64,000 nt of DNA, taken from Candidatus Latescibacterota bacterium. GTDB taxonomy: Bacteria; Latescibacterota; UBA2968; GCA-2709665. The stretch lies in NCBI GenBank assembly GCA_965226795.1, contig CBDDDZ010000005.1, forward strand, positions 2,048,001 through 2,112,000. Direction: 5' to 3'. The notes under the pieces are model-generated. The model did no database searches. It was not told the DNA's origin and worked only from the letters and a program-made list of their open reading frames with translations. Of this stretch, positions 6,224-64,000 are shown piece by piece. Each line of letters starts with the position of its first letter. The first letter of the stretch is position 1. A program made the translations under genes and the position numbers.

Positions 6224-6250
6224 TAGGGGCGACCGGCCGGTCGCCCCTAC
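6224..6250. repeat. REP-like palindrome 1 (GTAG foot on the minus strand), overlapping the hsdS stop
   Basis: Perfect 26-bp palindrome TAGGGGCGACCGGCCGGTCGCCCCTA at 6224-6249. Confidence 0.9.
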
Positions 6251-7656
6251 ATCGGTGGATGCTCGCTTGTGTACTCTTCTGCCGATTCCTCGTCGTCGCC
6301 CGAGACGTCTTCCTCAGGCAGTTCAGCCGCCGCCTTGCGCACATCGAGCTTGCCCGTGACGACATCGGCGATCAGGCGGGTGCGGTATTCTTGGAGGAGG
6401 GCGATCTCCCGGTGGGCACTCGCGATCGCTCCAGCCAAAGTTACGGTGGCTTTCTTGAATGCACTAACGATAGCCTCCTGTTCAGCTACCGGGGGAAGTA
6501 CAATGACCATCATATTCAGATGTTTGGGCCCAAAGTGCTCAATTCCCACTCCGGACTTTGCTAAATCAATCTGAACCTGAAACAACCGTGAATTCATGAA
6601 TAGTCGAACATATTCCATCACAGTTTGCTGTGATCGTGCCCAAAGTCGGATGATCCCAGTATAAGGAATGGCACCAGCTACCTCCGGACTCGCCAGTGCG
6701 ACCGCACCAGTACTCGCGCTCGCACTGAGCAAATAGTCGCTTTCCTTGACCGCAAAATGACTCCATCGCTTACCGACCATATCTGGATCCAGATAATTGC
6801 AACCATTCAACGTCGCCACCTCTTTGCGAAAACACGAGATTCGAAGCAGCGGCACTCCGGACTCGCGAAAATCCGCTGCCATGATACCGGGGCCTTCCTG
6901 AAAGCCGACGCGCTGCTTGAACGGAATAACTTCCCAATGCTTTGGCACTTCTCCTAGCCACTCCACCCTGGAGCGTTTATGGGCCGGGTAGGGCTGGCCG
7001 GTTCGGACGTCGATCTGGCCCGTGACGGCCTGGTGGATAATGGCCTGCTTCTGCTCCTCCAGCAGCGCAATCAGCTTCTGCCTGGTGCGGATGTAGCGCC
7101 GGATGCGCCGGTCGGCGTGGTCGAGGAAGCGGACGATGGCGGCTTGTTCGGGGAGGGGCGGGAGGGGAATCTTCTGTGACCCAAAGCTTTCGAAACGAAA
7201 GTCAGTTGACCGCTCGCGAATTCCCTTCGTGAGTGCCTGGATCCACTGGCTCCTTGCCATCTCGCGCAGGGCGTGGGCAAAGTACTCAGCTCTCGCTGTT
7301 GGTCCAGGTTCGCAAACAGAGTAGACCGGCGTCCCCTTGCCATTGGAGTCCGCCACACCGATCGCGCCCGCGAAGGCGTCCATCCCGTGGATCACAAGGT
7401 CACCACACCGAATGCCCTGGTAACCGATCTCCTTCAAGGACTCTGTAAAGCCACGCACACGACGATTCTTGCGAAGGGTAACCGCGCCGTCACGAAAGCA
7501 GGTTACAACTTCGTCAGCTTCCCTGACAGGCCGGTCCATCTTGCGAAACAACCACTTTCCCCGCTCGACTTCCCAATGCACCGGCACCCGCCCCAACCAC
7601 TCAATACTGGAGTCCTTGTAGGCAGGATAGCGTTTGAGATCTAAGGTCATCATCAC
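6247..7656 (-). CDS. hsdS: Type I RM specificity subunit S
   Basis: YPAYKDSSIEWLGRVPVHW, PLPPLPEQAAIVRFLD, a second EWLGEVPKHW and EYRTRLIADVVTGKLDVR; two-TRD layout. Confidence 0.95.
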   Translation of the reverse strand: MMMTLDLKRYPAYKDSSIEWLGRVPVHWEVERGKWLFRKMDRPVREADEVVTCFRDGAVTLRKNRRVRGFTESLKEIGYQGIRCGDLVIHGMDAFAGAIGVADSNGKGTPVYSVCEPGPTARAEYFAHALREMARSQWIQALTKGIRERSTDFRFESFGSQKIPLPPLPEQAAIVRFLDHADRRIRRYIRTRQKLIALLEEQKQAIIHQAVTGQIDVRTGQPYPAHKRSRVEWLGEVPKHWEVIPFKQRVGFQEGPGIMAADFRESGVPLLRISCFRKEVATLNGCNYLDPDMVGKRWSHFAVKESDYLLSASASTGAVALASPEVAGAIPYTGIIRLWARSQQTVMEYVRLFMNSRLFQVQIDLAKSGVGIEHFGPKHLNMMVIVLPPVAEQEAIVSAFKKATVTLAGAIASAHREIALLQEYRTRLIADVVTGKLDVRKAAAELPEEDVSGDDEESAEEYTSEHPPM

Positions 7657-7660
7657 AATT

Positions 7661-7880
7661 CACCATTGTAGGGGCGACCGGCCGGTCGCCCGTGCGCCGT
7701 ATGGATCCTGGCCGTACATAACGGCAGGATTCTCCGGGTCTGCCGGCCATCTTCCAGGGTTCTCCGCGATGTATTGCCGAATCCGATCCAGCGCGGATTC
7801 GTTCCGGAAAACGTGTTCGTAGTAATTGCGCTGTCAGACCGGTATATCGGGTGTGCCGCGCATGGCGTTGATGCGTTTGG
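7661..7880 (-). pseudogene. Tandem duplicate of the RAYT 3' end with a nonsense codon
   Basis: Colinear with 7910-8129 at a 249-bp offset; the TGG of VWQRNYYEH is TGA in this copy. Confidence 0.85.
7668..7691. repeat. REP-like palindrome 2 (GTAG foot on the plus strand), just upstream of hsdS
   Basis: GTAGGGGCGACCGGCCGGTCGCCC. Confidence 0.9.
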
Positions 7881-7916
7881 TACGGTCTGAGGTCAAAGTT
7901 CATCACTATCACCAAT

Positions 7917-7940
7917 GTAGGGGCGACCGGCCGGTCGCCC
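7917..7940. repeat. REP-like palindrome 3, at the RAYT 3' end
   Basis: GTAGGGGCGACCGGCCGGTCGCCC. Confidence 0.9.
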
Positions 7941-8189
7941 GTGCGTCGAGTGGATCCTGGACGTCCCTGATGGCAGGATTCTCCGGGTCTTCAGACCATC
8001 CGGCCGGGTTATCTGCGATGTATTGCCGAATCCGGTCCAGCGCGGATTCATGCCGGATGACGTGTTCGTAGTAATTGCGCTGCCAGACCGATGCACCGGG
8101 CGTGCCTCGCATGGTGTTGATGCGTTTGGTCGTGGCAGATTTGAATCCGGCCATCATCGCGCCGAGTGAACTGGGTCGCGGCCCACTGC

Positions 8190-8213
8190 GGGCGACCGGC
8201 CGGTCGCCCCTAC
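8190..8213. repeat. REP-like palindrome 4, inside the RAYT coding sequence
   Basis: GGGCGACCGGCCGGTCGCCCCTAC; read in frame as RGDRPVAR. Confidence 0.9.
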
Positions 8214-8495
8214 AGCGTTTGTTGACAATAATGACGATGCCATGAACGTGGTTCGGCATGACAATCCATGCGTCCAGTTCGATCTCGATGCGGATCCGTG
8301 CAGAATTTAGCCATTCCTCTGCGGCCATCCGGCCAAATTCGCTCAACTCCACCTCACCATCATTCACTTCGCCAAACAGTAATTCCTGGCCCTTTGTGCA
8401 GACTGTGATAAAGTATGCGCCGGCTCGTGAATAGTCGTAGTTGCGCAATCGGATCGACCGACGGTGACGTTTCTCCGGATCGCAGGAGGTGTTCA

Positions 8496-8615
8496 CTATG
8501 CCCTCAGAATTTCGTGCAACAATTGCTCAGACACTCTCTCCATTGCCGAAATGTCGGCCCGGATCTCTTCCAGCGTGAGCAGCGGCTCAGGATCAGATTT
8601 GAGATCTAAGGTCAT
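8496..8615 (-). other. 39-codon chimeric mini-ORF: HsdS start joined to an HsdM C-terminal helix
   Basis: MTLDLK (as HsdS) followed by SDPEPLLTLEEIRADISAMERVSEQLLHEILRA; HsdM has PQPMRTLEEIRADIVALEKETEGLL. Its TAG overlaps the RAYT GTG. Confidence 0.7.
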
Positions 8616-8631
8616 CGAATTATACACCAAT

Positions 8632-8655
8632 GTAGGGGCGACCGGCCGGTCGCCC
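8632..8655. repeat. REP-like palindrome 5
   Basis: GTAGGGGCGACCGGCCGGTCGCCC. Confidence 0.9.
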
Positions 8656-8835
8656 TATGCCGAATGGATCCTGGACGTACTTGATAGCGGGATTCTCCGG
8701 GTCTTCCGCCCATCCGGCCGGGTTATCCTCGTTGTATCGCCGAATCCGGGGCAGGTTCACTATGTGCCGGAAGTTCCAGCTTGCCAGCACGTCGACCCCG
8801 GCCAGGGTCGCCGTAGCGATATGCAGGGCATCGCT
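8656..8835 (-). pseudogene. Chimeric relic: PIN C-terminal fragment joined to a RAYT C-terminal fragment
   Basis: Reads DALHIATATLAGVDVLASWNFRHIVNLPRIRRYNE then DNPAGWAEDPENPAI; no N-terminus. Confidence 0.75.
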
Positions 8836-8863
8836 CGCCCTTGCGCTTTAGTTTCCCTTCGGG

Positions 8864-9079
8864 TCAGCCGTCGCGACGATCTGTTGGCATGTCCTGCGTC
8901 GATTTGCGTATCCGCGCAGCCAATGCTTCCAGCCTGGGGTCGGAATACCGCCTGGAATTGAACCACTCTACCTGTTCCTCGATGGTCATGTCGGCGGTCT
9001 CGGCGGCAATGCGGGCGCGGGCGTCGCGCATGAACCGGACGCAGTCAAACTTCTTTTCAACGCGAGTCGCTTCAGTCAT
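8864..9079 (-). CDS. Small hypothetical protein downstream of the PIN domain (possible antitoxin partner)
   Basis: MTEATRVEKKFDCVRFMRDARARI; start overlaps the end of the HsdM-PIN ORF, with GGAGG upstream. Confidence 0.65.
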   Translation of the reverse strand: MTEATRVEKKFDCVRFMRDARARIAAETADMTIEEQVEWFNSRRYSDPRLEALAARIRKSTQDMPTDRRDG

Positions 9080-11510
9080 GGACGATTTCCTCCGGCGTGC
9101 GAATGTCGATGGCAGAGTATCCATTCTGACGATTGACCTCGTTGCAGGCCCTGATGCGCCGCCAGTTCACCATGTGCCTGAAATTCCAGCTTACCAGGAC
9201 ATCGGCTCTGGCAAGGGTGGCGAGGGCGATGTGCAGCGCATCGGTCCGATTGGCCCCACCCAGGGCCTCACCCGAGATGTAGGCATCGGCGAGCTTTCTT
9301 GCTTCTCTTGAAACGGCGAGCAATTCCGTGTGTTCCGGGGGAACGATGCTGGCCACCTGCCTGATGGAAGGCGGAGCATCCGCCAGTTCATCCAGAGTGA
9401 CGGCCGAGAGGAGCATCGTGGCTTCCCCCCGGCGAAAGACCTCGAAGAGCTGCTTCGATTGCTCGCGGAATTCATTGTCATGGCAGCCGCCGATCACCGA
9501 GGTATCCACGTAGATGCGCGGCTTGCCGTACACAACCGACGGTTCGCGCACCATCGGCAGATCCCCGAGCAACCCCTCCGTTTCTTTCTCCAGCGCCACG
9601 ATGTCCGCCCGGATCTCCTCCAGGGTCCGCATAGGCTGTGGTTTGTAGAAATATCGGGTGAAGCTGATCTCGTAGCCGATTCTTATGCTGTCTGCTTGGT
9701 ACCAGGCATCAGCGGCATAGGGCAGAACTTCCCGCCGCAGGAAAGCTTCAATGCCACCCTCCTCCTGCAGCGGAATCTGCTCGGTGTCGCGCAGGTCGGT
9801 GTCGGGTTCGTACTCCACCACGACGGGCTTGCCGTTTACAGTAGCTTCGAACCGGCCGCGCAGCGGGTCGGCCTTAGTGTCTCTCTTATGGATCTTCTTG
9901 ATGATGTGCGGCGCGGTGTCGCTGCGCTCGCCGCTCTCCTTCAGCTTCTTAATCTCGGCGGCCTTGTAAGCGCGGCTGGGGTCGGCACCTTCGAGCCGCA
10001 GCGGCCGTTCGACCATCACCTTCCAGTAGCCGAAGGCGGCGTTGTCGAAGATCTTGCTCTGCTCGCTTTCCTCAAAGGCGAGGAAGGTGTCGCAGATGCG
10101 CTGGATGTCCTCCTCGCCGAGTTCGCAGTTCTTCTTGCCCAGGTTCTTGCGCAGAGGCCGGTACCACCCGGTGGCGTCGATCAACTGCACCTTGCCCCGG
10201 CGATGCTCCGGCTTGCAGTTAGTGAGTACCCAGACGTAGGTGGCGATGCCGGTGTTGTAGAACATGTTGAGCGGCAGGGCGACAATCGCCTCCAGCCAGT
10301 CGTTCTCGATGATCCAGCGGCGGATATTGCTCTCGCCCTGGCCGGCGTCGCCGGTGAACAGGGAACTGCCGTTGTGCACCTCGGCGATGCGGCTCCCGCC
10401 CTCCTTCATCTTGGAGAGCTTGTTGGCGAGAAAGAGCATCTGGCCGTCGCTGGAGCGGGTGACCAGAGAATATTCGGGATCTGCGGCGTGCTCGATCACG
10501 AAGCGCGGGTCCCGCATTTCCTTCTTGCCGCCCATGCGCTCCAGATCGGTCTTCCAGCTCTTACCGTAGGGCGGATTGGAGAGCATGAAGTCGAACTCGC
10601 GGGACGGGAAGGCGTCGTTGGCCAGGGTGGAGTGCTCGGGGCCGCCCACGATGTTGTCGGCGGCGTCGCCTTCACCCTTCAGCAGCAGGTCGGCCTTGCA
10701 GATGGCGTAGGTTTCGGCATTGATCTCCTGGCCGTAGAGATGGGTGGAGACCTGCCTGCCTTTTTCGGCGGCGAGTTGCTGAAGCACGTCTTCGGCCACG
10801 GTCAACATGCCGCCGGTGCCACAGGCTCCGTCGTAGATCAGGTAGGTGCCGGACTTGATCTGGTCGGCGACGGGCAGGAAGACCAGCTTCGCCATCAGGG
10901 TCACGGCGTCGCGCGGGGTCCAGTGCTCGCCCGCCTCCTCGTTGTTCTCCTCGTTGAAGCGCCGGATCAGTTCCTCGAAGATCGTCCCCATGCCGTGGTT
11001 GTCAAGGCCGGGGTGCCTGACCGTGCCGTCGGCATTGCGCACCGGGGCCGGGCTCAGGTTGATGTCGGGCGAGGTGAGTTTTTCGATCAGCGTGCCCAGG
11101 GCGTCGGCCCTGGACAGCCGCGAAACCTGGTTGCGGAACTCAAAGTTTTCGAGGATGTCCTGGACGTTGGGCGAGAAACCGTCAAGCCAGGCCCGGAAGT
11201 CGGCCTCAAGCTGCTGGCGATTGGCGCGGGCGCGCAGGTCGCGCAGGGTGAACGTGGAGGTATTGTAGAAGTCCTGTCCCGCCGCCTGCCGCAGGGGCTC
11301 GTGTTGGTCGACCAAGCCAATTTTGTCGAGGGAGGCCTGCATGTCCAGGACGTTCTGCTTGCTATCCTCCAGTACCGCGTCGAGCCGGCGCAGAACGGTC
11401 ATCGGCAGGATCACGTCGCGGTACTTTCCGCGCACGTACAGATCGCGCAGCACGTCGTCTGCGATTCCCCAAATGTAGTTTGCGATCCAGTTAAGGTCGG
11501 CATTACTCAT
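9072..11510 (-). CDS. hsdM: Type I RM methyltransferase subunit M with an in-frame C-terminal PIN domain
   Basis: AGEHWTPR, YDGACGTGG, NPPY and the canonical end RTLEEIRADI..LE. The frame then continues ~160 aa with IYVDTSVIGG, TLDEL, DALHIA and SWNFRH. Confidence 0.92.
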   Translation of the reverse strand: MSNADLNWIANYIWGIADDVLRDLYVRGKYRDVILPMTVLRRLDAVLEDSKQNVLDMQASLDKIGLVDQHEPLRQAAGQDFYNTSTFTLRDLRARANRQQLEADFRAWLDGFSPNVQDILENFEFRNQVSRLSRADALGTLIEKLTSPDINLSPAPVRNADGTVRHPGLDNHGMGTIFEELIRRFNEENNEEAGEHWTPRDAVTLMAKLVFLPVADQIKSGTYLIYDGACGTGGMLTVAEDVLQQLAAEKGRQVSTHLYGQEINAETYAICKADLLLKGEGDAADNIVGGPEHSTLANDAFPSREFDFMLSNPPYGKSWKTDLERMGGKKEMRDPRFVIEHAADPEYSLVTRSSDGQMLFLANKLSKMKEGGSRIAEVHNGSSLFTGDAGQGESNIRRWIIENDWLEAIVALPLNMFYNTGIATYVWVLTNCKPEHRRGKVQLIDATGWYRPLRKNLGKKNCELGEEDIQRICDTFLAFEESEQSKIFDNAAFGYWKVMVERPLRLEGADPSRAYKAAEIKKLKESGERSDTAPHIIKKIHKRDTKADPLRGRFEATVNGKPVVVEYEPDTDLRDTEQIPLQEEGGIEAFLRREVLPYAADAWYQADSIRIGYEISFTRYFYKPQPMRTLEEIRADIVALEKETEGLLGDLPMVREPSVVYGKPRIYVDTSVIGGCHDNEFREQSKQLFEVFRRGEATMLLSAVTLDELADAPPSIRQVASIVPPEHTELLAVSREARKLADAYISGEALGGANRTDALHIALATLARADVLVSWNFRHMVNWRRIRACNEVNRQNGYSAIDIRTPEEIVHD

Positions 11511-53462: not shown

Positions 53463-53517
53463 TTTTCCAAGCCTCCGTGGAAAGTCGCGGGTCGTACCTG
53501 GCGTTGGATTGAAATTG

Positions 53518-53557
53518 TCAGGATCAGGATTTACTGGATTTGTGGATTTGCAGGATT
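53518..53557. repeat. Dispersed GGATT-periodic repeat, copy B
   Basis: TCAGGATCAGGATTTACTGGATTTGTGGATTTGCAGGATT. Confidence 0.7.
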
Positions 53558-53841
53558 CCGATTCCTGTTGAATATCCGTCTGTATTCCAGACTTTCTGCC
53601 CCGAAGTTGATCAATAGGCCGAGATCAAAATCGTATGCCACCTGATAGTTTCTCGCCTGTGTAATGTGAAAATCCGCGAGATGTATGACCGCATATAACC
53701 TTAACGGTGACTCGATCCGAGCAGCTTGTAACGATGCGGGGCGTGTTCAGGCGGCGCGTTGATTTCCTACATTCCTGGGCCAAGCAATGACCATAGTTGA
53801 TGAAAGAGTGCTGTAAGTATGGCGGAATCCTATCTCATAGA

Positions 53842-55050
53842 TCACTCTCGGAGTGGACAGATCCCCTTCACTTCAAGAATGGGAGGCTCGACGTTATCGT
53901 ATACACGGCGACGTCGCCCTTTGAATTCAACGCGCATTCGACTCGAATCCAATACGTCCAAGTATAGCTTCAATATATCTTCCACCGTGTTCGAGAGTTT
54001 CAAATACATGACCGAAATTAGCCGTGCGAACGTCCCGAACCTTTCTGGTTCTTTTCCATATGACCGGAATATTGCGGGAATAGGTGACCCATGTATTCGT
54101 AGTCGATGCTCACGAGTTGGACTTTCGTGACTGATAAGAGATTCCAGATAGCCATCATCGCGGAGGGCCGCAAGACCTTTCTGCTCCTGAAACGATCTTT
54201 CATTTAGTAGGATTCTTCTGACGCGCATTTCGGCTATATCATCTGGGGAAATATCCCCGTAGGCTGGATTGTCAAGTAGGTCAAAACCCGATTCTTTATC
54301 CTCTTCCGTCAGAACTACCTTCCAAACAGTCTGGGAGCCCGATGTAGTTTGAACGATTTCCTTTGTCCTTACCCAAGCGGCCCCTTCTTTAAACGCAAAA
54401 GCGAATTTATCGACCTGCGTGAATGGATTGTCCAGGCCTTTACGTATTGCACCGAGAAACGCCGATTGCTCGGATGACTCGGGGATAAGTTCTAGCTGAA
54501 TCTCTTTCGAACCCCACTGCGCGTTTCTTACTGGAACAAAATGCAATTTTTCATCTTCCGAAAGGAAAAGTGTGAATTCGCCCGGATCGCTCCGGATGCT
54601 GGAAGGGATCGAAACAGCGTTTGAATTTGTGTCCGATTTCACTTCGGACAGCTTCTTCACCAACGCATCATAGACTCCATCAATCGAAGTCGAATGCAAA
54701 TCGAGATAACCAATCGTCTTCAACATCCCAGGAATCTCTGTATCATCAATACGGACTGGAAGGATATACTCCTGGCTCTCCTGTAATGCCCTTGCTTGAG
54801 CGTTTTGGCGTTCGTGATTCGTCCATACTTTGCGCGCATAATCCCGAGAAAGAAACATGACACAATAACGCGCCCTATCCTTGTAAATCGACGAAAAGTG
54901 ATCATATAGATTCTTGCCTCAAAGCTGCGCCTGTTCGAACTCATCGTAGAAGACCCTATAGCCGCCTCGTTTGAGTCGCTTTGCCAAGTCCTCGGCGTAC
55001 TGACGATCTTCGCCTGCGAAAGAAACGGCAACATCATACTCTTTCGGCAT
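53842..55050 (-). pseudogene. TIR-domain protein interrupted by one in-frame TGA (54919-54921)
   Basis: MPKEYDVAVSFAGEDR...EQAQL*GKNLYDHFSSIYKDRARYCVMFLSRDYARKVWTNHER...YILPVRID; the two track ORFs share one frame. Confidence 0.85.
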
Positions 55051-55310
55051 ATCCAAAACGTCCCTTCTATTTGCGACAACTGTTGGGCGAAAAGCTCCGT
55101 TCCTTTCAGAACTAACCCATTGTTCTACTGTTAATTCGTACTGCAACCGGCATCACGCACGTCTTGGCATTTCCAGTAGAAAAAAGCGATCTGATCTCCG
55201 TAATAAATGAGTGGAATCTACAGTCAATTATACCGTCGCACGCGTGCTTCAGCATCTTGTTGTTTCGTTTTTACTTGTGATATCAATTCGCGTACCGTTT
55301 AGCATTTTCT

Positions 55311-56279
55311 CTATAGGAAATGTTCGCCGGCATGATCAGAGAACGAATCGGCGTCCCGGATATATTGCATGACAGTAGCCGGATTTGTATGTCGAGTAAC
55401 GGCCATGATTTTGTCCAGTCGGGCATGATGCACTGCAGCGCTGGTGACAAATCCCGCCCGCAAGGAATGTCCAGCTACTTCCTTTGGATTTAGTCCAATC
55501 CTTGAGGCATAATGCTTGACAATCCGCGGTATGTCAGAGTGGTGTAGCGGTCTCCCTTGCACATGGCCGCCGCGTTTCATTGATTGAAACAAAGGGCCTG
55601 ATGTGATTCGAGATGCTCGAAGCCACATCTGCAGCCGATGGATAGGCCGGATAACGCTACCGTCCAAAATTGCGATTCTTTGCCCCCTCCCCTGTTGATC
55701 CGTTTTAGACCGGCGGATAGTGAGGAACATGTGACGATTCGACCCGTTTTCGGTCTCAAGGAACTCGACATCGTCGACGATCAAGTCGCAAATCTCCGAA
55801 CGGCGGAGAGCGCCAGCAAATCCAACTGCAATTATCGCAGCGTCGCGCCGCCCAATTGTTGTATCAGGGCAGTGCGAGAGCATCGCCTGTATGTGATATT
55901 CTCTCAACGCTTCTACTCGCCAACATGCCGTACCCTTAAGCCGAGCTAAACCCTTGAGAGTGGCGCGAACCATCGGGTGGTTTGTTGGCGACGCCTTCCC
56001 TGCTTCGGTAAACTTCCTATTAATGGCGCTCTTGTAGAGCGTAACTGTGCCCATTGACAATACTGTCCCACTTCGCGTGCTGGGCTTTGTTGCCAAATGG
56101 ACGAGAAATCTCGCGACAGCGTCCGGCGAGGCAGATAGCGGCTCGGCATTTTCGATTTCATCGCAGTATTCAATGAATCTGGACCACCCTTTTTTGTAAG
56201 CAATTCCGGTATTTGTCGCCAACGCGGAGAAAAGCACTTCCGTATGAATGCCGTGCTCAATCGTGGCCGAGGAATTCAA
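55311..56279 (-). CDS. Tyrosine recombinase, Cre-like
   Basis: Catalytic R (ALRRSE), K (RRSKTDQ), HxxR (GHSLRAG), H (TRH) and Y (MQYIR). TTG at 56279 follows AAGGAG; the ORF extends to 56351. Confidence 0.92.
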   Translation of the reverse strand: MNSSATIEHGIHTEVLFSALATNTGIAYKKGWSRFIEYCDEIENAEPLSASPDAVARFLVHLATKPSTRSGTVLSMGTVTLYKSAINRKFTEAGKASPTNHPMVRATLKGLARLKGTACWRVEALREYHIQAMLSHCPDTTIGRRDAAIIAVGFAGALRRSEICDLIVDDVEFLETENGSNRHMFLTIRRSKTDQQGRGQRIAILDGSVIRPIHRLQMWLRASRITSGPLFQSMKRGGHVQGRPLHHSDIPRIVKHYASRIGLNPKEVAGHSLRAGFVTSAAVHHARLDKIMAVTRHTNPATVMQYIRDADSFSDHAGEHFL

Positions 56280-56347
56280 CAGATACTCCTTCGTGAAGAT
56301 TTGGGCGTCTTGCAACTTGGAGTATATGACTGCTCGAACATTGTAAA

Positions 56348-57106
56348 GCAATTAACTACGGAATTAAAACGGGCTATAACGCAGCGTTTATCATTGATAA
56401 CGACACTAAAGAAGCATTGATAACCGAAGATGCTCGCTCAGCAGAAATCATCAAACGGCTGCTTCGTGGCAGAGACATTCAGCGCTATCGAGTCCATTGG
56501 GCAGGTCTATGGTTAATTGACGCGCACAACGGATACGGCAATGTTCCCGCTATCGATATTGAAGAATACCCAGCCATCAAAAACCATTTGGACGGGTTCT
56601 ATCCCCAACTGGAAAATCGGCAAGACAAAGGCAGGACACCGTATAATCTCCGTAATTGCGCTTACCATGAGGAATTTTCCAAGCAAAAGCTGTTCTGGAT
56701 GGACATGTCGAATAACGGCAGATTTGCCTACTCCGAGGTGCAGATATATTGCAACGACAAAGGGTTTTTTGTGACAGGTGAATCACTGAAATACTTTTGC
56801 GCGATTCTAAACAGCGCCCCTATCACGTGGTTGATGAAAAACAACGCATTGACGACGGGAATGGGGCTTTTGCAATGGAAGAAATTCGCTGTTGAACACC
56901 TGCCGATACCCAGAATTTCCGCCCCAGAGCAAAACACTTTCATCTGCTTGGTCGACCGCATATTGGAAGCGAAATTGGCCGATCCAGATGCTGACGTAGC
57001 CGCCACTGAAGCGGAGATTGATTCTAGGGTTCACGAATTGTACGGACTAACGGAGGCGGAGATCTCAGCGGTAGAGGAGCGGACTTTATCCTCTTCTTCT
57101 GGCTAG
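56348..57106 (+). other. Silent alternative C-terminal target-recognition cassette of the type IIG enzyme, inverted
   Basis: Open frame AINYGIKTGYNAAFIIDNDTK...EIDSRVHELYGLTEAEI, colinear with the last ~255 aa of the type IIG protein; no methyltransferase domain and no obvious RBS. Confidence 0.88.
56391..56409 (+). repeat. Left inverted repeat of the predicted invertible segment
   Basis: TCATTGATAACGACACTAA, exact reverse complement of 57866-57884 (24/26 when extended). Confidence 0.85.
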
Positions 57107-57159
57107 CAACGTGACGACGCACAAAATCCCGCACGGTAGCGTTTCAGAAGTTGATTTAC

Positions 57160-60100
57160 TTATGATTTGCTCTCTATCGCGGCGATTTCTTTCTTAGTGA
57201 GGCCGTAGAGTTCATAGACCATCCTGTCTATCTCTGCTTCTAGTTTGCCGGTCTCAGTATCAGGCCCTACAGTCTTGGCTGACAGGATTCGGTCCATCAA
57301 AAGGATAAACGGAAATTGCTCAGCGGCAGTAAGTTGGGGGCTTGGAATTGGTTCTACGGAAGCATTAATCCATCGAGTAACTCCCATTCCAGAATTCAGG
57401 GCCGTGTTCCTCATAAACCAAGTCACCAAGTTTGAGTTAAGTATGGCGCATAGGTATTTTATTGATGGACCTGACATTATAAATGCTGTGTTTACGCAAA
57501 ATCGGCAATCCATATCAAAGGCAAATCGGCCTCGTTCCGTGAGATCCATCCAGATCAGCTTTTCTTTGCCGAACTCTGCGTGGTAAGCGCAAGTATCCTG
57601 TAATTCGTACCAAGCGTGTACAGTATTCTTCCTGGATTTCGTGCCGTTCGGAAGGGTTCTACCCGACTGTTCTAATCGTGCTTTGCCAAAAGATAGCAGA
57701 TGCTTTTTCACAGCTGGATAGTCATCAATGTTGAGTGTCAGAGCAGGGAAAGTTGCTATCAGCCAGAGACTCGCCCACTCCGCCCGATAGCGTTTTATAT
57801 CCCGTCCGCGGAGCACAGGCTTGATAAGGTCCTCGGAGCTCGGATCTTCAGCGACCAGCGCGTTCTTAGTGTCGTTATCAATGACAAAGGCGTCATTGCA
57901 ACCAGTAAGAACTCCTCGGTAAATTGCTATATCCCAATCTTTCAAGGGTGTTCCTCTTGCCTGCATCTTGTCCATAACGCTTTGTTCGGTGCGTGACAGG
58001 ATGCTCCACGGCTTCTCGCCGTCCAGGCGAGTTTGACCCCACAACCTTTCGTCGGGCGGAAAGTCTTTGGTAGGCAACCTGTCCATGTCTACTGCGCGGC
58101 AGGCTTCTTCGCCAATCCCTTTGCCCTCGCGTAACAGGAGAACGCTGGTGTCAACGATAGTATTTTCAAAAACATCCTTACCCATCTCCAGCAGGCGAAG
58201 GGGCGTGTGGCGCTCATAGAAGTACCGACGAAGGGCCTTGCCGTATTCGGCCTTCAACCAACTGTTGGAGGTGATATAGGCCAACAAGCCCTGGGTAGGT
58301 TTGAGCAGTTGACAACCCTTTTCGTAGAAAAGCTGGTAAATATCCCCGGTGCGGGCAAACGTCTCGAAGCCGGCATTATTGTATAACTTTCCCAACTGCC
58401 CCCCGTTCTTTTGTAATTGAATGTATGGCGGATTGCCAATAACGACATCGAAACCATCTTCGATGCCGAACATATATTTGGTGTCAAACCAATCCGCCTT
58501 TGCATTCTGATCATAGGGCCTCCAGCGGGTAATTTTTCGAGCATCTTCAAAGCTGGAATCGAATTTTTCCTTACGCGCCTTGTACTTTCTCTGTTCATCT
58601 TCCCGCAACTGTTTACGGTGTTCTGGGTTGGGAAATTGTGCAATTTTTCGTTCAATTTCTCGTTGCTGACTCTCCTCCCATTCTGCTCGCTGGTCTTCCA
58701 AGGCCTGTTCCAACTGTTCTAGACAGTTTTTTTCCTGGCGGATGTACTGGATTTTTTGCGGTCGGTTATTCGCCAGAAAATACTTGCGGCGAATGGCGTC
58801 AATTTCCTTTCGATTTTGCTGTACAGCGTCGTCTTGGAGTAGAGAACTGACTTCGGATAGCTGCAAACCGACGAGCGTGTTCGCTGCGACAAAGCGTGTC
58901 TCCAGATTCGGCAGGGGTTTGATGCCAAAGTTGTCGGCTGTCTTGTCTGCTTCCTGCTCAATAGCCAGGGAGATGAAGAAGCGAAGTTTGGCGATTTGAC
59001 AAGCCACGGGCTGAATGTCCACGCCGAAGATGCTGTTCTGGATGAGGTAGAGCTTGCGCCCGAAGTCGCCCGAATACCGCTGGAAGGTTTCACTGATCTC
59101 CATCAATTCGGCATCGCGTTCTTGCTGGTTTCTGGTCTCAAACGCCACGTTAGCCTTTTCCCTGGCGCGTTCCTTCTGAAGTGCTTCCCAGCGGTTGTTG
59201 CCGGGATCGAGCCGCTGCAAAGCCAGGGTCAGTTTGTGCAGTATGCCCATCGGAAACGCACCGGAACCGACCGCCGGATCCAGCACTTTGATTTCGGCGA
59301 TGGCCTGCACAATGCCCTCCTCTTCGGCTTCCTCAAAGAGTTGATGGGCGTCGTCGAATGCGTCTTCATAGTCCAGCAAATACCGAAAACGGTCTTGCCG
59401 GAATTTCGCGCCGCTCACCGTTGGTTGCACCTTTTGTGTGAGCGTCGCCACAAGTGCCTCGTCCACCATGTAGTCCACAACGGCACGGGGCGTGTAGTAA
59501 GAGCCGGTTTGCTTGCGTGCCGTTTCGCGCGTCTCCGGGTTGTAGGCCGCCAACAGGTTCTCAAAGACCTTGCCTAGCAGTTCCGGGTCCAGTGCGACTT
59601 CTTGCTCTATGGGCGTGTTCTCCTCGACCGTGAATTTGTAGTGGTTGAGCAGAGGAAACAGTCCATATTCATCATCGAAGAACAGTGCGTCAGGGACGTT
59701 CAATTCCCGCCAGGCGTCACGACGCGCCTGTGCGGCCCGGGCACCCTCGCTTGGGTCCGGGTCGCTGAACATGTCGATGCGTTTGCCTCCGGCGCTTCTC
59801 GACTCTTCGTCATCGAGGCAGTCGAACAGACCGCCGTTGATGAACGGCGTCTGCTTCATCAGGCTCTCGAAACGCTTTACATCGTCGATGAGCGATTTGT
59901 AGCGATAACGTGAAAAGACCCTGTGGTTAGGCTCCCTCCGGGTACTGAAAGCACGCGCGCCGATCTCGGTGTTGAGAGTTGCGAAGAAGAGATTCTGCAA
60001 GACTGCGCGGTAGTAGTCGGAACCGCCGAATTTGCTCAGCAACTGTTCCACTTCGGCTTGTACGAACCATTCCTCCCGTACCAATCCCTTTTCCTTAATA

Positions 60101-60936
60101 AACCAGACGAACAGGATACGAGTAATCAAACGGATTACCTGTTGCTCCGCAGGCACGGTCGAGGGGAATTTTGCATCCTCAGCCGCCCTCTTGAACCAGT
60201 CGAAGAGTTCGCCGTAGAACCGACGGTTGAGTTCCTCGGTGTCCAGTTTGTCCAACCAGGCGGCCAGGAGGCCATCGAAATTGTGTGGCTTGTTGTTGCG
60301 CCCCATCCATATTACGCACTCGGCCAGCGACAGCTCAGCCAATATGTCCAAATGGGCGCGGTGTGGACCGCCAGGGTTAATCTCTCGTATCAGCGACACT
60401 TTGCCCAGTACATCACGTTTCCGATCCAGCTTGTGCTCACCTCGATGAACAAAGGCAAGAGTTAGGAGATTGGATGTGGTGCGGAAGAGAACGACGGACG
60501 GTTGGTTCAGTCGCTTGTTAATCTCGCGGGTGAATAGCGCGTACTGTCCTCGAGTGCAGGTCGCTTTCTTGAGTTCGACGGCGAAGAAAGTAAAGCTGTG
60601 CTGATGTCCCCTGTCAAAGGAAGCGGCATCAAATGCAATCGTAGGCTGGCTGCTGGCCGCGATTTCGTCGCTTGTCACCTGAAAAATCAACTTCACGGAT
60701 TGCGTTTGTTCGCGAAACTCCTCTTCCGTCCTGGTGTTTTCGTTTGGAGCAGGGAATTCGCTAATAAACTCATCCACGCTTCCCGAAAGTTCCTGAATGC
60801 GCTCACTTTGATATCCCAAGACCTCAAGAATGTCTTTGGTCGCCCTCAGAAATTCGTTTGCTGGCATCGCCGCGAAAACAGATTGTAGGGCCTCCAACAG
60901 ATTGTCCGCGCTCGTTTTCAAGTTTTCTCTGCGCAT
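57160..60936 (-). CDS. Type IIG restriction-modification enzyme (Eco57I/TaqI_C-type)
   Basis: N-terminal AVELK, NGGLF, GSYYTP, LDPAVGSGAF, GNPPY and a C-terminal TRD ending LYGLT. Confidence 0.92.
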   Translation of the reverse strand: MRRENLKTSADNLLEALQSVFAAMPANEFLRATKDILEVLGYQSERIQELSGSVDEFISEFPAPNENTRTEEEFREQTQSVKLIFQVTSDEIAASSQPTIAFDAASFDRGHQHSFTFFAVELKKATCTRGQYALFTREINKRLNQPSVVLFRTTSNLLTLAFVHRGEHKLDRKRDVLGKVSLIREINPGGPHRAHLDILAELSLAECVIWMGRNNKPHNFDGLLAAWLDKLDTEELNRRFYGELFDWFKRAAEDAKFPSTVPAEQQVIRLITRILFVWFIKEKGLVREEWFVQAEVEQLLSKFGGSDYYRAVLQNLFFATLNTEIGARAFSTRREPNHRVFSRYRYKSLIDDVKRFESLMKQTPFINGGLFDCLDDEESRSAGGKRIDMFSDPDPSEGARAAQARRDAWRELNVPDALFFDDEYGLFPLLNHYKFTVEENTPIEQEVALDPELLGKVFENLLAAYNPETRETARKQTGSYYTPRAVVDYMVDEALVATLTQKVQPTVSGAKFRQDRFRYLLDYEDAFDDAHQLFEEAEEEGIVQAIAEIKVLDPAVGSGAFPMGILHKLTLALQRLDPGNNRWEALQKERAREKANVAFETRNQQERDAELMEISETFQRYSGDFGRKLYLIQNSIFGVDIQPVACQIAKLRFFISLAIEQEADKTADNFGIKPLPNLETRFVAANTLVGLQLSEVSSLLQDDAVQQNRKEIDAIRRKYFLANNRPQKIQYIRQEKNCLEQLEQALEDQRAEWEESQQREIERKIAQFPNPEHRKQLREDEQRKYKARKEKFDSSFEDARKITRWRPYDQNAKADWFDTKYMFGIEDGFDVVIGNPPYIQLQKNGGQLGKLYNNAGFETFARTGDIYQLFYEKGCQLLKPTQGLLAYITSNSWLKAEYGKALRRYFYERHTPLRLLEMGKDVFENTIVDTSVLLLREGKGIGEEACRAVDMDRLPTKDFPPDERLWGQTRLDGEKPWSILSRTEQSVMDKMQARGTPLKDWDIAIYRGVLTGCNDAFVIDNDTKNALVAEDPSSEDLIKPVLRGRDIKRYRAEWASLWLIATFPALTLNIDDYPAVKKHLLSFGKARLEQSGRTLPNGTKSRKNTVHAWYELQDTCAYHAEFGKEKLIWMDLTERGRFAFDMDCRFCVNTAFIMSGPSIKYLCAILNSNLVTWFMRNTALNSGMGVTRWINASVEPIPSPQLTAAEQFPFILLMDRILSAKTVGPDTETGKLEAEIDRMVYELYGLTKKEIAAIESKS
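57866..57884 (-). repeat. Right inverted repeat, inside the type IIG gene
   Basis: TTAGTGTCGTTATCAATGA on the plus strand; encodes IDNDTK in the same codon phase as the left copy. Confidence 0.85.
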
Positions 60937-61033
60937 GTCGGCTCATTTCTTGTCTTGATCGTTTGGGTCGGAGATCACGCGTCTGTTTGCAGCGCCTGCC
61001 TGTACGCTACGCACGGGCAGGCAGAAAGTCGGG

Positions 61034-62053
61034 TCACTGCGCTGGCAGGGCCCTGATACCGACTCTCTGTATAATCTTATTTGCCAATTCCCTGAAGTCC
61101 CGGCGCGCGTCATTTGCAGCGGCGGCGTGGCCGCCAATCGCTCCGTCAGCCGTCGTTAGATGAAAAATGGGTTTGCGAACTTCCTGAGCCATGGGCACCA
61201 GGCTCCGGAAGTGTTTGACAGTGGCAAGGGCGTGTTCTGTATCTTGCGTCGGTGTGGACGGGTACGGTCCTTCGTTGTCGTCACACAGGTTCCGCGCGTA
61301 CTCTGCCGGCATTCTATTGACCCACTTGTCATATGCTTTGACGGGGCGGCTCAGGCGGACGCCGTGCTGCTGCACCACGTACCCGACGGGGCGCATCTCC
61401 CCGTCAGGCAGTTGAAATTCCGGCTGCTTCCAGTTTTCCCGTCGCCGCTTCCAGTCTTCCCGCCATCGATTCAACGTAGGTCCGAGGTTGCGCAGGCCCT
61501 GGAGGGAAAACAGGTCGGTGCCCAGGGGAACGATGATGTGATCGGTTGCAATCAACGCCGAGCGATTAATCGCGCCAAGATTGGGGCCAACGTCTGCAAG
61601 AATGACTGAGGCGTTCATCTGCATTGCCCCACGCTGCATCACGGTAGAGAAAGAAGTCAGAATCCGAAAAGGGCGGTAGAGTTCGCCGGAACCCAATGCG
61701 TTAGGCCATTCCGTCGACAGCGTGTCTTCGAATCCCGCCAGTGCCAAGTCTCCCGGTATCAGGCTTAACGCAGGTGTAATTTCCGCAAGCCCCGGGTCGT
61801 TGATGTCTCCGACTTTTGTCAGCGGCCGGACGCACTGCAGGATGGTCCGGTTGGAGGCGTCGTTGTTTTCGTGCCATAGGTCTTCCAACTGTTCTTCATT
61901 TAGAAATCCGGCGGTGAGATTCGCTTGGGGGTCGAGGTCACAGGCCAACACCCGATAACCGATGTCGGATAGCATCCACGCCAGGTGATACACAAGGGAT
62001 GTCTTGCCAACGCCGCCCTTATTATTGAAAAAAGTCAAAACGGGAACGGTCAT
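61034..62053 (-). CDS. ParA/MinD-family ATPase
   Basis: NNKGGVGKT, DLDPQANLT and DVGPNLG. Confidence 0.9.
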   Translation of the reverse strand: MTVPVLTFFNNKGGVGKTSLVYHLAWMLSDIGYRVLACDLDPQANLTAGFLNEEQLEDLWHENNDASNRTILQCVRPLTKVGDINDPGLAEITPALSLIPGDLALAGFEDTLSTEWPNALGSGELYRPFRILTSFSTVMQRGAMQMNASVILADVGPNLGAINRSALIATDHIIVPLGTDLFSLQGLRNLGPTLNRWREDWKRRRENWKQPEFQLPDGEMRPVGYVVQQHGVRLSRPVKAYDKWVNRMPAEYARNLCDDNEGPYPSTPTQDTEHALATVKHFRSLVPMAQEVRKPIFHLTTADGAIGGHAAAANDARRDFRELANKIIQRVGIRALPAQ

Positions 62054-63270
62054 GTCAGGTCGTCCTTGCGAGAAGGTATTATGACTTGAACGTTGTTCAT
62101 ATCAACGTGGAATTCCATTTCTGGATGCCCGGCCTGTCGAAGCAGCCGATTGGCCAATGGAATGCCTATGCCGTATCGTTGCACGAATCCCAAGTTTCTC
62201 ATCGCCTCCGCGAGATTGGGATTCCGGTACGACGTTATGCCAGATCGACCGAAGTTATCTATTGTTACTGAGCCGAAGACTCCCCCGGGACTTAGTATTT
62301 CTATGCGGTCGTCGTACCAATAAACTCGCGTTGGAGTGTAGTTCCCCTCGTACGATCGGTGCATGACTGCATTGCGAGCGATCTGCTGGATCGCTGCGAC
62401 AGGATACGTACTGACACGCCTCTCTCTTGATCCCGATGTAACGTCAACCGATGTCCGGTTGTGTCCGTTCAGCTTCTCGTCGAGGCGCCGCAGCACGTCC
62501 ATAACGGTTCCGCTGATTGCCTCTTCATCGGTTATGTCGTCCGTTGCTTCATTGCCGGCAAATCTCAAGAACTGAATGTACGCTCCCGGCAGGTGATCCA
62601 GCGTCCGTTTGCCGAGTACGAGTAGGCCTAGCACGGTAGGAACGGGATCAGCAGCGGAGGCAATCATCTTTGTCGCGGCCAACCGTTCTTCGAGAGTGCG
62701 TTCGTTGGCTACCAGAACTTCGCGATCAAAGGCCTGTGGCAAGTATTCATGCTCGAACTGGGAAAGGTTGAGATCGCTCAAGGCAGCGAAAGAAACCGGA
62801 TGAATGTCGAATGGGCGATCTCCGTACTGACGTCTTTCGTTGAGGATCCTTTCATCTTGTGCAGTGGCTGTCCCACGGCGGGCACCCGTTCGGATGTGGA
62901 TGGCTCCTTTGTATCGAACCGGCGGCGAATTGGATGGCTGCACGGTAATCAACGCCAATTCTCTTCCCTGCAGCGTACGCTTTTCCACCGTCATCGAGGG
63001 CGGAGGGACGATATTCCCGTCGGTTTTCATATCAGCCAACGTCTGGAGCACCCGATCCGTTACACTGAAATCACAAATCGTCCCATCGTCTTTCACGCCC
63101 ACAAGAACAAGGCCCGGAGTATCGTAATCCGGCAAGTCATTTGCAAAAGCGCAGATAGCTTCCCTGATCCTGGTAGTCGCATCACCAGACAGTGTTTCCT
63201 TGAACTCGACGCGATCAGACTCGCCGGCTTCGACGATACGTATTAGATCCGCTTGTGTCAGACTTGCCAT
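62050..63270 (-). CDS. Schlafen/AlbA_2 domain protein with a RecG-C/HATPase_c_4-like domain
   Basis: GESDRVEFKE, ICAFAND, GVKDDG, NAVMHRSY, DRIEILSPG and RNPNLA. Confidence 0.88.
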   Translation of the reverse strand: MASLTQADLIRIVEAGESDRVEFKETLSGDATTRIREAICAFANDLPDYDTPGLVLVGVKDDGTICDFSVTDRVLQTLADMKTDGNIVPPPSMTVEKRTLQGRELALITVQPSNSPPVRYKGAIHIRTGARRGTATAQDERILNERRQYGDRPFDIHPVSFAALSDLNLSQFEHEYLPQAFDREVLVANERTLEERLAATKMIASAADPVPTVLGLLVLGKRTLDHLPGAYIQFLRFAGNEATDDITDEEAISGTVMDVLRRLDEKLNGHNRTSVDVTSGSRERRVSTYPVAAIQQIARNAVMHRSYEGNYTPTRVYWYDDRIEILSPGGVFGSVTIDNFGRSGITSYRNPNLAEAMRNLGFVQRYGIGIPLANRLLRQAGHPEMEFHVDMNNVQVIIPSRKDDLT

Positions 63271-63454
63271 TTTGACTGTTCCGTCCAATTAAGCATGTTT
63301 TAAGCTTACACGTTCAAAGATAACAAGCCAAGTTACCAACTCAAAACCAGTTCGGTCCGGTTGTGCGGATTTCACGGGCAGCCTCGTATCTCGCCCGCCG
63401 TGAATCCGTAGTTCCCGAATATGCGTTTCTTTTTCACACCGCCCACGTGGGCTG

Positions 63455-64000
63455 TCACGGCGTTCGATACCTTGACGTAATAGGCCATTTGGTTAGTAAC
63501 TCTTGCTCCTCGTAACACGTCCGACGGCGTAGCTTTTTGAGTGCCTTCTCTCTGATTTGGCGAATCCGCTCGCGCGTGAGATTCATCATTTCGCCGATTT
63601 CTTCAAACGTCAGGCTCTCGCTGCCATCCAGGCCAAAATAGAACCTGATAACTTCCGATTCCCGTGGTGTGAGTCGCTCAAGCGCTTCCTCTATATTTTT
63701 CACTGCCGACTCGCGCAAGATGTCGGTGTCAGGGGGAGCCGTTTTCTCATCGACCAATGTGTCGAGCAGACTACGTCGGCCATTGGAAAGGGGTTCGTCA
63801 AGCGCCCACACTTCAAGGCCACTCGATATGGTCTCCAAGACTGTTTCAACTGTGACTCCGAGTTCGACAGCGACTTCTTCCAAGGCCTCTTGGGACCGCC
63901 TTCAAGTTCGCCGGCACCTGTCTCCTGGGCTGGCTCAGTAACCCAGTCCTGATTAAGTCTGCGCGAAATTTCTTTGAGCAAATTGACTTTATTTTTCGGC
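63455..64000 (-). pseudogene. Sigma-70 (RpoD/RpoS-like) 3' part with an apparent frameshift; 5' end outside the window
   Basis: Region 4 LTPRESEVIRFYFGL..TFEEIG..LTRERIRQI. The region-3 entry PKNKVNLLKEISRRL is in another frame, and the region-4 frame has a TGA just upstream of 63883. Confidence 0.7.

Follow-up and report, generated by a model that had tools for sequence, protein, structure and literature searches.

A probable recombinase-driven combinatorial specificity shuffler with three nested site pairs in a Cj0031-like methyltransferase locus of Latescibacterota

Inversion-driven switching of target recognition domains (TRDs) in type II restriction-modification (RM) enzymes is already known, usually with two or four states. 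The type I hsdS invertons, including the pneumococcal six-phase switch, are said to combine a single recombinase with several repeat pairs and combinatorial alleles. Among single-chain enzymes, long reads confirm inversions in four Cj0031-like type II RM genes; a PLD+SNF gene is located near two of these four loci, directly upstream in Bacteroides ovatus CP083813.1 (Table 3 of that study), and the recombinases and target motifs were named as an open question (Milman, Yelin, Kishony 2023; PMC9881135). A 2025 study reports type IIG TRD inversions at PVR2 and PVR3 of Bacteroides fragilis H1 among descendants (PMC13064476), and Cj0031 of Campylobacter jejuni, a protein of 1243 amino acids (aa), is switched ON and OFF by a polyG tract (PMC4889913). 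Here we describe a locus in a 64,000-nucleotide stretch (positions 2048001-2112000 of contig C5; hereafter, the window) of the 5.4-Mb, five-contig genome of a Candidatus Latescibacterota bacterium, in which a Cj0031-like defense methyltransferase gene, a headless copy of its TRD and the adjacent gene of a Cre-like tyrosine recombinase probably constitute a combinatorial specificity shuffler with three nested site pairs.

The locus works like the published class of inverting Cj0031-like genes and shares the class features that were checked, namely, the repeats, the domain architecture and the PLD-SNF gene. As in the type I hsdS systems, one recombinase is found together with several repeat pairs and combinatorial target-recognition alleles, but whole TRDs of a separate HsdS are shuffled there, whereas here pieces within one TaqI-like domain are; assignment to the type I hsdS invertons was rejected because the domain being shuffled here is TaqI_C, part of the methyltransferase chain itself, not a separate HsdS accompanied by HsdM and HsdR. 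In common with the class of Milman and colleagues, a full gene stands tail to tail with a headless copy, the inverted repeats are inside the coding sequence, a PLD-SNF2 gene is located upstream, and Eco57I and TaqI_C share a single chain; in contrast to those loci, which come from cultured species and were confirmed by long reads, the present ones belong to uncultured lineages and are analyzed by between-genome comparison, there are three sites with a defined core, and three genes separate the helicase from the methyltransferase (PMC9881135). PVR2 and PVR3 likewise are inversions within the TRD-coding sequence of single-chain IIG enzymes, involving one or two pairs of repeats and 2 or 4 genotypes, compared with three pairs and up to 8 genotypes here (PMC13064476), and Cj0031 has the same Eco57I and TaqI_C domains and a similar length but the polyG mechanism (PMC4889913). 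The original prediction for this locus, a short note made from the sequence alone, had invoked a Bacteroides precedent for type IIG inversion, which is borne out by the published loci (PMC9881135, PMC13064476). We found no published report of the three-site design, the core motif or the spread among sponge symbionts and about ten lineages, although supplements may hold some; the accessible portions of PMC10333322 and PMC5903667 contain nothing on the three-site design, the motif or sponge symbionts.

The methyltransferase, its spare domain and three nested site pairs

The expressed gene (57160..60936, minus strand) encodes a 1258-aa gamma-class N6-adenine methyltransferase with a C-terminal TaqI-like TRD, of the IIG/Cj0031-like type (Pfam Eco57I, 4.8e-35; TaqI_C, 5e-14), with an NPPY motif at residues 835-838; the best-scoring PADLOC models for this gene are those of IIG systems (REase_MTase_IIG, 1.5e-132). 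The closest solved protein is Clostridioides difficile CamA (2.5e-17), which aligns over residues 829-1182 but is an orphan, fixed enzyme (PMC8187626). Opposite the end of the gene lies a silent, headless spare TRD (56347..57106, plus strand; TaqI_C, 1e-11) that is open to its stop. The original prediction had recognized this tail-to-tail copy of the methyltransferase C-terminus, the start of which is corrected here to 56347, where the homology begins sharply, 44 bp further out than the 19-bp repeat on which that prediction was built. The two domains are identical in 120 of 229 aligned residues and 502 of 781 aligned bases, and no further spare domains were found elsewhere in the genome.

A scan with the recombinase alignment retrieved 85 loci (65 from genomes and 20 from metagenomes), with both domain copies in 28, the silent copy alone at the mapped site in 12 and neither copy in 45. 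The comparisons are based on 27 loci, that is, the 28 cassette loci and the window, minus L106 (the same DNA as L045) and L102 (cut); L076 was additionally excluded from the identity-tract and homology-edge analysis (26 loci), L033 and L049, in which site C could not be located, are missing from the counts for this site (25 loci), and the module mapping, junction and codon analyses were performed on the 23 loci in which both copies are open over at least 215 residues.

The cassette in the window contains three nested pairs of inverted sites. Site A, with a 12-6-12 layout, forms the outer edge of the cassette at 56335..56364 (plus; spacer AGCAAT, 56347-56352) and recurs at 57911..57940 (minus; spacer 57923-57928, codons Ile-Ala-Ile 1003-1005). 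Site B is the perfect 19-bp inverted repeat at 56391..56409 (plus) and 57866..57884 (minus), with the proposed spacer CGACAC (56401-56406 and 57869-57874). Site C (56651..56667, plus; 57581..57597, minus) has the spacer TTGCGC (56656-56661 and 57587-57592) in a 12-bp exact inverted repeat (56656 / 57581). The 19-bp repeat, the coordinates and identical codon phase of which had been described correctly, is longer than any other exact inverted pair in 55000-61500 (the next one is 12 bp), with no other site in the genome within 3 mismatches; inversion at this repeat would convert the 1258-aa open reading frame (ORF) into one of 1255 aa, with 231 instead of 234 residues after the repeat, which equals the in-frame exchange previously given as 240 to 237 aa. 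In the whole window, longer inverted pairs come only from a palindromic element at ~6.2-8.7 kb, a GC-rich, REP-like, perfectly palindromic sequence of 20-26 bp present in five copies at 6224-8655. The palindrome TTATCA-T-TGATAA, to which attention had also been drawn, is indeed present at 56388-56400, but it was rejected as the recombinase site: it is found in the left copy only and is not conserved, with T in 13-14, C in 11-13 and A in 1-2 of the 27 loci as the third base of the Ile codon, and the conserved dyads are centered on the 6-bp spacers instead.

The two copies of a site have identical spacers within a locus in 27 of 27 cases for A (compared with 64 of 702 cross-locus pairs), 24 of 27 for B (28 of 702 between loci) and 25 of 25 for C (174 of 600), whereas nearby control 7-mers are identical between the copies in 6-9 of 26 loci. 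The start of the silent copy is at an invariant position, in the site A spacer, across all 27 loci; identity falls to 0.41 one base outside this spacer, and at 15 of the 26 loci the identity at site A extends over just 6-8 bp. The arms resemble one another, with GATAT-N6-TTACC for A and GATAC-N6-TTACC for C in the expressed copy and GATAA-N6-TAAGA for B, and the site core reads (G/A)T(A/T)N-[6 bp]-T(A/T)A(C/T). Although the left arm of the silent site A is non-coding, 5.0 of its 12 positions agree with the reverse-complemented right arm (3.1 in shifted controls), with at least 6 matches in 12 of the 27 loci versus 5.9% of controls, and the arm symmetry peaks at the center of the 6-bp spacer. 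Among 238 residue-columns, 7 of the 8 strongest synonymous-codon fixations are in or beside the site arms (GCT in 45/45, with a background of 0.17; ACT in 35/40; CGT in 22/23; ATT in 42/44), and the fixed codons sit where the arms need T or A. In the window cassette, two inverted same-spacer pairs conform to the strict core, compared with 0.002 expected in shuffles. A fourth candidate site, near residues 1047-1050, was rejected: its arms are present in 63% of the copies, but arms and matching spacers coincide in 6 of the 23 loci only, and the spacers differ in the window; the scan for this site did not score site C because columns beside alignment gaps were skipped.

The three sites cut the TaqI-like domain into modules U, M and C, so that the current allele is U1-M1-C1 and the silent copy is U2-M2-C2. 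Module U1 (YRGVLTG; 57875..57922, minus) has the alternative U2 (NYGIKTG; 56353-56400), module M1 (WLIATFP...WYELQD; 57593..57868, minus) has M2 (WLIDAHN...PYNLRN; 56407-56655), and module C1 (MDLTE, VNTAF, NSGMGVTRW; 57160..57586, minus) has C2 (MDMSN, NDKGF, TTGMGLLQW; 56662-57106); the loop differences in the original prediction, such as VNTAF versus NDKGF, are as described there. Across loci, the two copies differ in module U at 20 of 27 and in module M at 25 of 26, all four U/M combinations are found in the expressed position (in 8, 8, 7 and 4 of the 27 loci), and module C comes in many types.

Recombinase, proposed mechanism and rearranged relatives

The Cre-like tyrosine recombinase gene abutting the cassette (55311..56279, minus; Pfam Phage_integrase, 1.3e-14) probably encodes 322 aa from TTG 56279, the likelier start because it is preceded by AAGGAG and because TTG 56351 falls within site A. 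A search for a sigma-70 promoter of this gene found none (1 match elsewhere, with 2.4 expected). Cre is the best Protein Data Bank (PDB) match of the recombinase profile (1.8e-11 over profile positions 38-323, including both domains; XerD, 1e-7), and all six catalytic residues are intact (R183, K216, H295, R298, H321 and Y330, in the numbering of the 346-aa ORF), in agreement with the original description of an adjacent Cre-like enzyme. In the homologue matches, the R-K-H-R-H/W-Y set is kept in 81/82, 82/82, 86/86, 86/86, 86/86 and 85/85, respectively. The resemblance to Cre/loxP consists in the best solved match over near-full length and a dyad site around a short spacer, but the E-value is modest, the inversion here is within a gene and involves three spacer variants, and a His is aligned with Trp315 of Cre. 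In each of the 28 cassette loci other than L048, the recombinase gene starts no more than ~200 bp from site A. Insertion-sequence genes part the recombinase from a site A remnant in L056 (~8000-10600).

Tyrosine recombinases generally need identical spacers in partner sites; the spacers of A, B and C differ, and pairing is therefore expected only between the two copies of the same site. We propose that the adjacent Cre-like enzyme would bind the core sites and invert the segment flanked by the two copies of a given site, such that inversion at A would swap U, M and C, inversion at B would swap M and C, and inversion at C would swap C alone, yielding 2x2x2 = 8 in-frame enzymes. In silico, all eight alleles of the window are open and full-length, at 1249-1264 aa. 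These alleles would methylate different motifs and direct restriction at different phage sequences, probably via the protein encoded by the upstream PLD-SNF2 gene.

The prediction of different motifs comes from alignment with CamA, in which Gln346 and Ile349 recognize base pair 3, Arg425, Gln438, Trp439 and Arg441 read base pairs 1-3, and Tyr455, Ser472, Ala473, Ser514, Ile517 and Tyr521 read later base pairs (PMC8187626). R1007 and L1010, the two-state residues of module U (R/Y and L/K), align with Gln346 and Ile349; Q1113 and D1114 of module M, replaced by R and N in M2, align with Gln438 and Trp439; module C aligns near Tyr455 and Ser472/Ala473 and, by extrapolation beyond the aligned range, Ser514/Ile517/Tyr521. 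The loops of each module would read a different part of the target, and therefore, the alleles should methylate different motifs.

Rearrangements of the kind that inversion predicts can be gleaned from the comparison of genomes. A close homologue of the recombinase is present in 7 of 60 relatives, 6 of which show both domain copies, and in the seventh, the contig ends inside the silent copy. The flipped state, for which a search of related genomes had been suggested, is found in G010, a genome of the same genus, where the expressed domain matches the silent domain of the window with 88% identity, and the silent domain matches the expressed one of the window with 86%; informative sites are unswapped up to 56390 (19 of 19) and swapped from 56411 (21 of 22), which places the junction inside the 19-bp repeat. 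The comparison of the window with L031 also has a junction at B, with the same arrangement as in L023, the G010 locus, and is not counted separately. Between L038 and L040, 157 of 157 sites are swapped from just after A to the spacer of C, and then, 117 of 118 are unswapped. In L038 versus L039 and in L045 versus L080, the middle module is swapped with the C-terminal module in place; the silent C type differs between L038 and L039, and in L045 and L080, which have no matching B, the left junction is somewhat downstream of B. Some copies are themselves damaged: both domain copies of G010 shift frame near their ends (L023, ~11290 and ~11680), and the silent copy of G052 is split by an insertion sequence (L028, 8024-9278). 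A contig from X10 (contig 1), with 15 differences in 1047 bases along the gene, diverges from the window precisely at the inner edge of B (57866) and continues for 6.7 kb beyond this point, off the stretch; it may represent a third version of the domain, attached through site B.

The same site core occurs in a different genetic context. In four Binatia loci, a homologous recombinase gene is located near head-to-head paralogous genes that are unrelated to the methyltransferase, with signal-peptide-like starts and no Pfam match. The intergenic segments of 223-310 bp (L055 5199-5423, L060 3063-3332, L061 5065-5370 and L062 4795-5106) are bounded by (G/A)TAA-CTCTGA-TTAC exactly where the homology of the genes stops, with one arm base off in L061; L055 and L060 have the segment in one orientation, L061 and L062 have it in the opposite one, and shuffling of a locus yields such a core pair in 0-2% of trials. 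These segments are probable invertible promoters. In Spirochaetia, L074 (3514-3762) contains, near the recombinase, a 247-bp segment bounded by inverted core sites with identical spacers, possibly, a further switch. Five gammaproteobacterial loci (L072, L075, L078, L082 and L084) have a recombinase homologue head to head with genes for RTX-repeat proteins of 1180-1290 aa; some of these loci have inverted paralogous stretches, and in L082, a transposase is located between the two genes.

Partner genes and genomic setting

Classification as a type IIG RM enzyme, proposed at the outset, holds as far as the N6-adenine methyltransferase and the TRD are on a single chain, a IIG feature, but finds no support as regards a self-sufficient nuclease. 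The model of the N-terminal domain (predicted local distance difference test score 85.6) resembles the PD-(D/E)xK fold only weakly: the best structural match, DrdV 2-142 (Z 5.7, root-mean-square deviation 4.3, 123 aligned residues), is tied with unrelated folds, the similarity to the BpuSI nuclease domain is weak (Z 4.0), the domain has no sequence match in the PDB and no Foldseek match at E 0.001, and DUF4391 matches weakly in 11 of 19 members. In the nuclease motif, E121 is kept in 18 of the 19 members and K123, the Lys of ExK, in 12, and no conserved motif-II Asp was detected on the preceding strand among these members (Q86 in 19/19, E91 in 18/19). Just upstream, beyond the window, lies a gene for a 1097-aa PLD-SNF2 protein (L021 13098-16391), and a homologue of this helicase is present within the retrieved flank at 18 of the 28 cassette loci. 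Given this gene and the poor conservation of the nuclease motif, a self-sufficient IIG nuclease seems unsupported. The likeliest arrangement, we infer, is a methyltransferase/specificity chain working with a separate motor-nuclease, the PLD-SNF2 protein.

Directly behind the PLD-SNF2 gene, a second copy of the N-terminal domain, ~50% identical to that of the methyltransferase, is fused to sigma-70 regions 1.2-4, with the sigma part matching PADLOC MzaA (L021 11456-13095, L023 17357-18964 and L024 15240-16877); the 3' part of this gene occupies 63455..64000 (minus) and runs past the end of the window. The fusion is intact in G010 and G040 but frameshifted near 63930-63945 in the window's genome, and might couple the helicase to a transcription response. 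Between the methyltransferase and these upstream partners are two cargo genes, for a ParA-like ATPase (61034-62053, minus) and a Schlafen/AlbA ATPase (62050-63288, minus), and the pair (61034..63288) is also present in G029. On the other side, a TIR-domain gene (53842-55050, minus) adjoins the recombinase; it has a TGA at 54919-54921 where G006, with a full-length gene of 402 aa, has Trp.

The GC content of 53500-58500 is 46-54%, compared with 58% genome-wide, which fits an acquired defense island. The label "sponge metagenome" is attached to 4 of the 11 runs that contain part of the stretch. The closest named recombinase loci are labeled Latescibacterota or Gemmatimonadota, and the labels of the cassette loci include Latescibacterota, Rhodothermales, Thermodesulfobacteriota, Poribacteria, Caldilineaceae, Opitutales, Binatia, Nitrospirales, Gammaproteobacteria and Alphaproteobacteria.

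Alternative explanations and significance

Several observations, presented here along with the explanations that they favor, weigh against the shuffler as proposed. The alternative that survives best, although we consider it unlikely, is that the locus has the architecture given above but, in this genome, no longer flips or does so slowly, with an impaired recombinase in a decaying island. The recombinase carries R49G and R144W at positions where 77/79 and 78/80 homologues, respectively, keep Arg, and a premature stop and a frameshift interrupt, respectively, the neighboring TIR gene and the sigma-70 fusion. Furthermore, the X6 contig from the probable source sample (depth 14.9, 0 differences), which spans 54500-58266 and covers all six site copies, has the window orientation, with no strand-changing joint among the 15 of 110 joints listed, and the junctions described above come from comparison of different genomes rather than cells of one population. 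However, the single orientation in X6 is weak evidence because contigs drop rare alleles, so that minor alleles would be invisible; the spacers match in all six site copies, both domain copies are open, and the catalytic residues are intact. Under the shuffler scenario, the cassette would continue to flip in this genome. Two other contig breaks were considered as signs of flipping and set aside: the break in X7 (56424-56453) does not coincide with the edge of any site, and the X8 contig ends, which by extrapolation are at the inner edges of B, could reflect strain mixing and were not counted.

It is improbable that the swaps were produced at conserved motifs by gene conversion or by homologous recombination of the host, with the recombinase being merely the integrase of the island. 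Such an explanation is compatible with the long identity tracts around site B in many loci, with the homogenization of module U described below and with the absence of such a cassette from the retrieved DNA at 45 of the 85 recombinase loci. Other properties of site B also weigh against the shuffler: it shows a plateau of 17-30 bp without a sharp 6-bp edge, has a right arm that does not fit the strict core and is lost in 3 of the 27 loci. Module U is homogenized at 7 of the 27 loci and identity tracts reach 119 bp, so gene conversion appears to act as well. Moreover, the independence of the site figures is overstated because the loci themselves served to derive the motif and related loci have a common history, so that counts across them are not independent. 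Host recombination does not readily account, however, for the 6-8 bp identity and one-base edge at site A, the arm symmetry in non-coding DNA, the codon fixation at the arms, the same core at the unrelated inverted segments of Binatia or the proximity of the recombinase start to site A at all cassette loci but one.

The two-state switch at the 19-bp repeat alone, which the original prediction put forward, seems quite implausible now: although B is the longest exact repeat and the G010 junction is within it, A and C, the pairs that had been missed, are better conserved than B, relatives have junctions at A and C, and the three loci without a matching B keep both, so that there are three site pairs and up to eight alleles. 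Least plausible of all is the possibility that the sites chiefly import new recognition modules from other cells, with inversion secondary, as could be suggested by the X10 contig leaving the window sequence at the edge of B, the many C types and the different silent C types in L038 and L039, given that 25 of the 26 typed loci have one M1 and one M2, with their places alone changing, as inversion predicts.

The combinatorial shuffler with three nested site pairs, thus, is the probable explanation of this locus. A broader interpretation, which we put forward tentatively, is that a Cre-like invertase family spread horizontally in the sponge microbiome and operates several independent switches through naturally orthogonal 6-bp spacers, with the specificity of the methyltransferase following a modular code (two U types, two M types and many C types) that might be predictable and recombinable, and that, in Binatia, this family inverts promoters located between paralogous genes for envelope proteins. 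The locus family offers a concrete site model for a class that so far has been described by repeats and read counts. The three breakpoints cut the TaqI-like domain into loop modules, with eight natural alleles per locus, and accordingly present a testable code for the specificity of gamma-class methyltransferases and a natural example of orthogonal spacer sites. The distribution of these loci hints at a shared, switchable defense cassette among unrelated sponge-associated bacteria.

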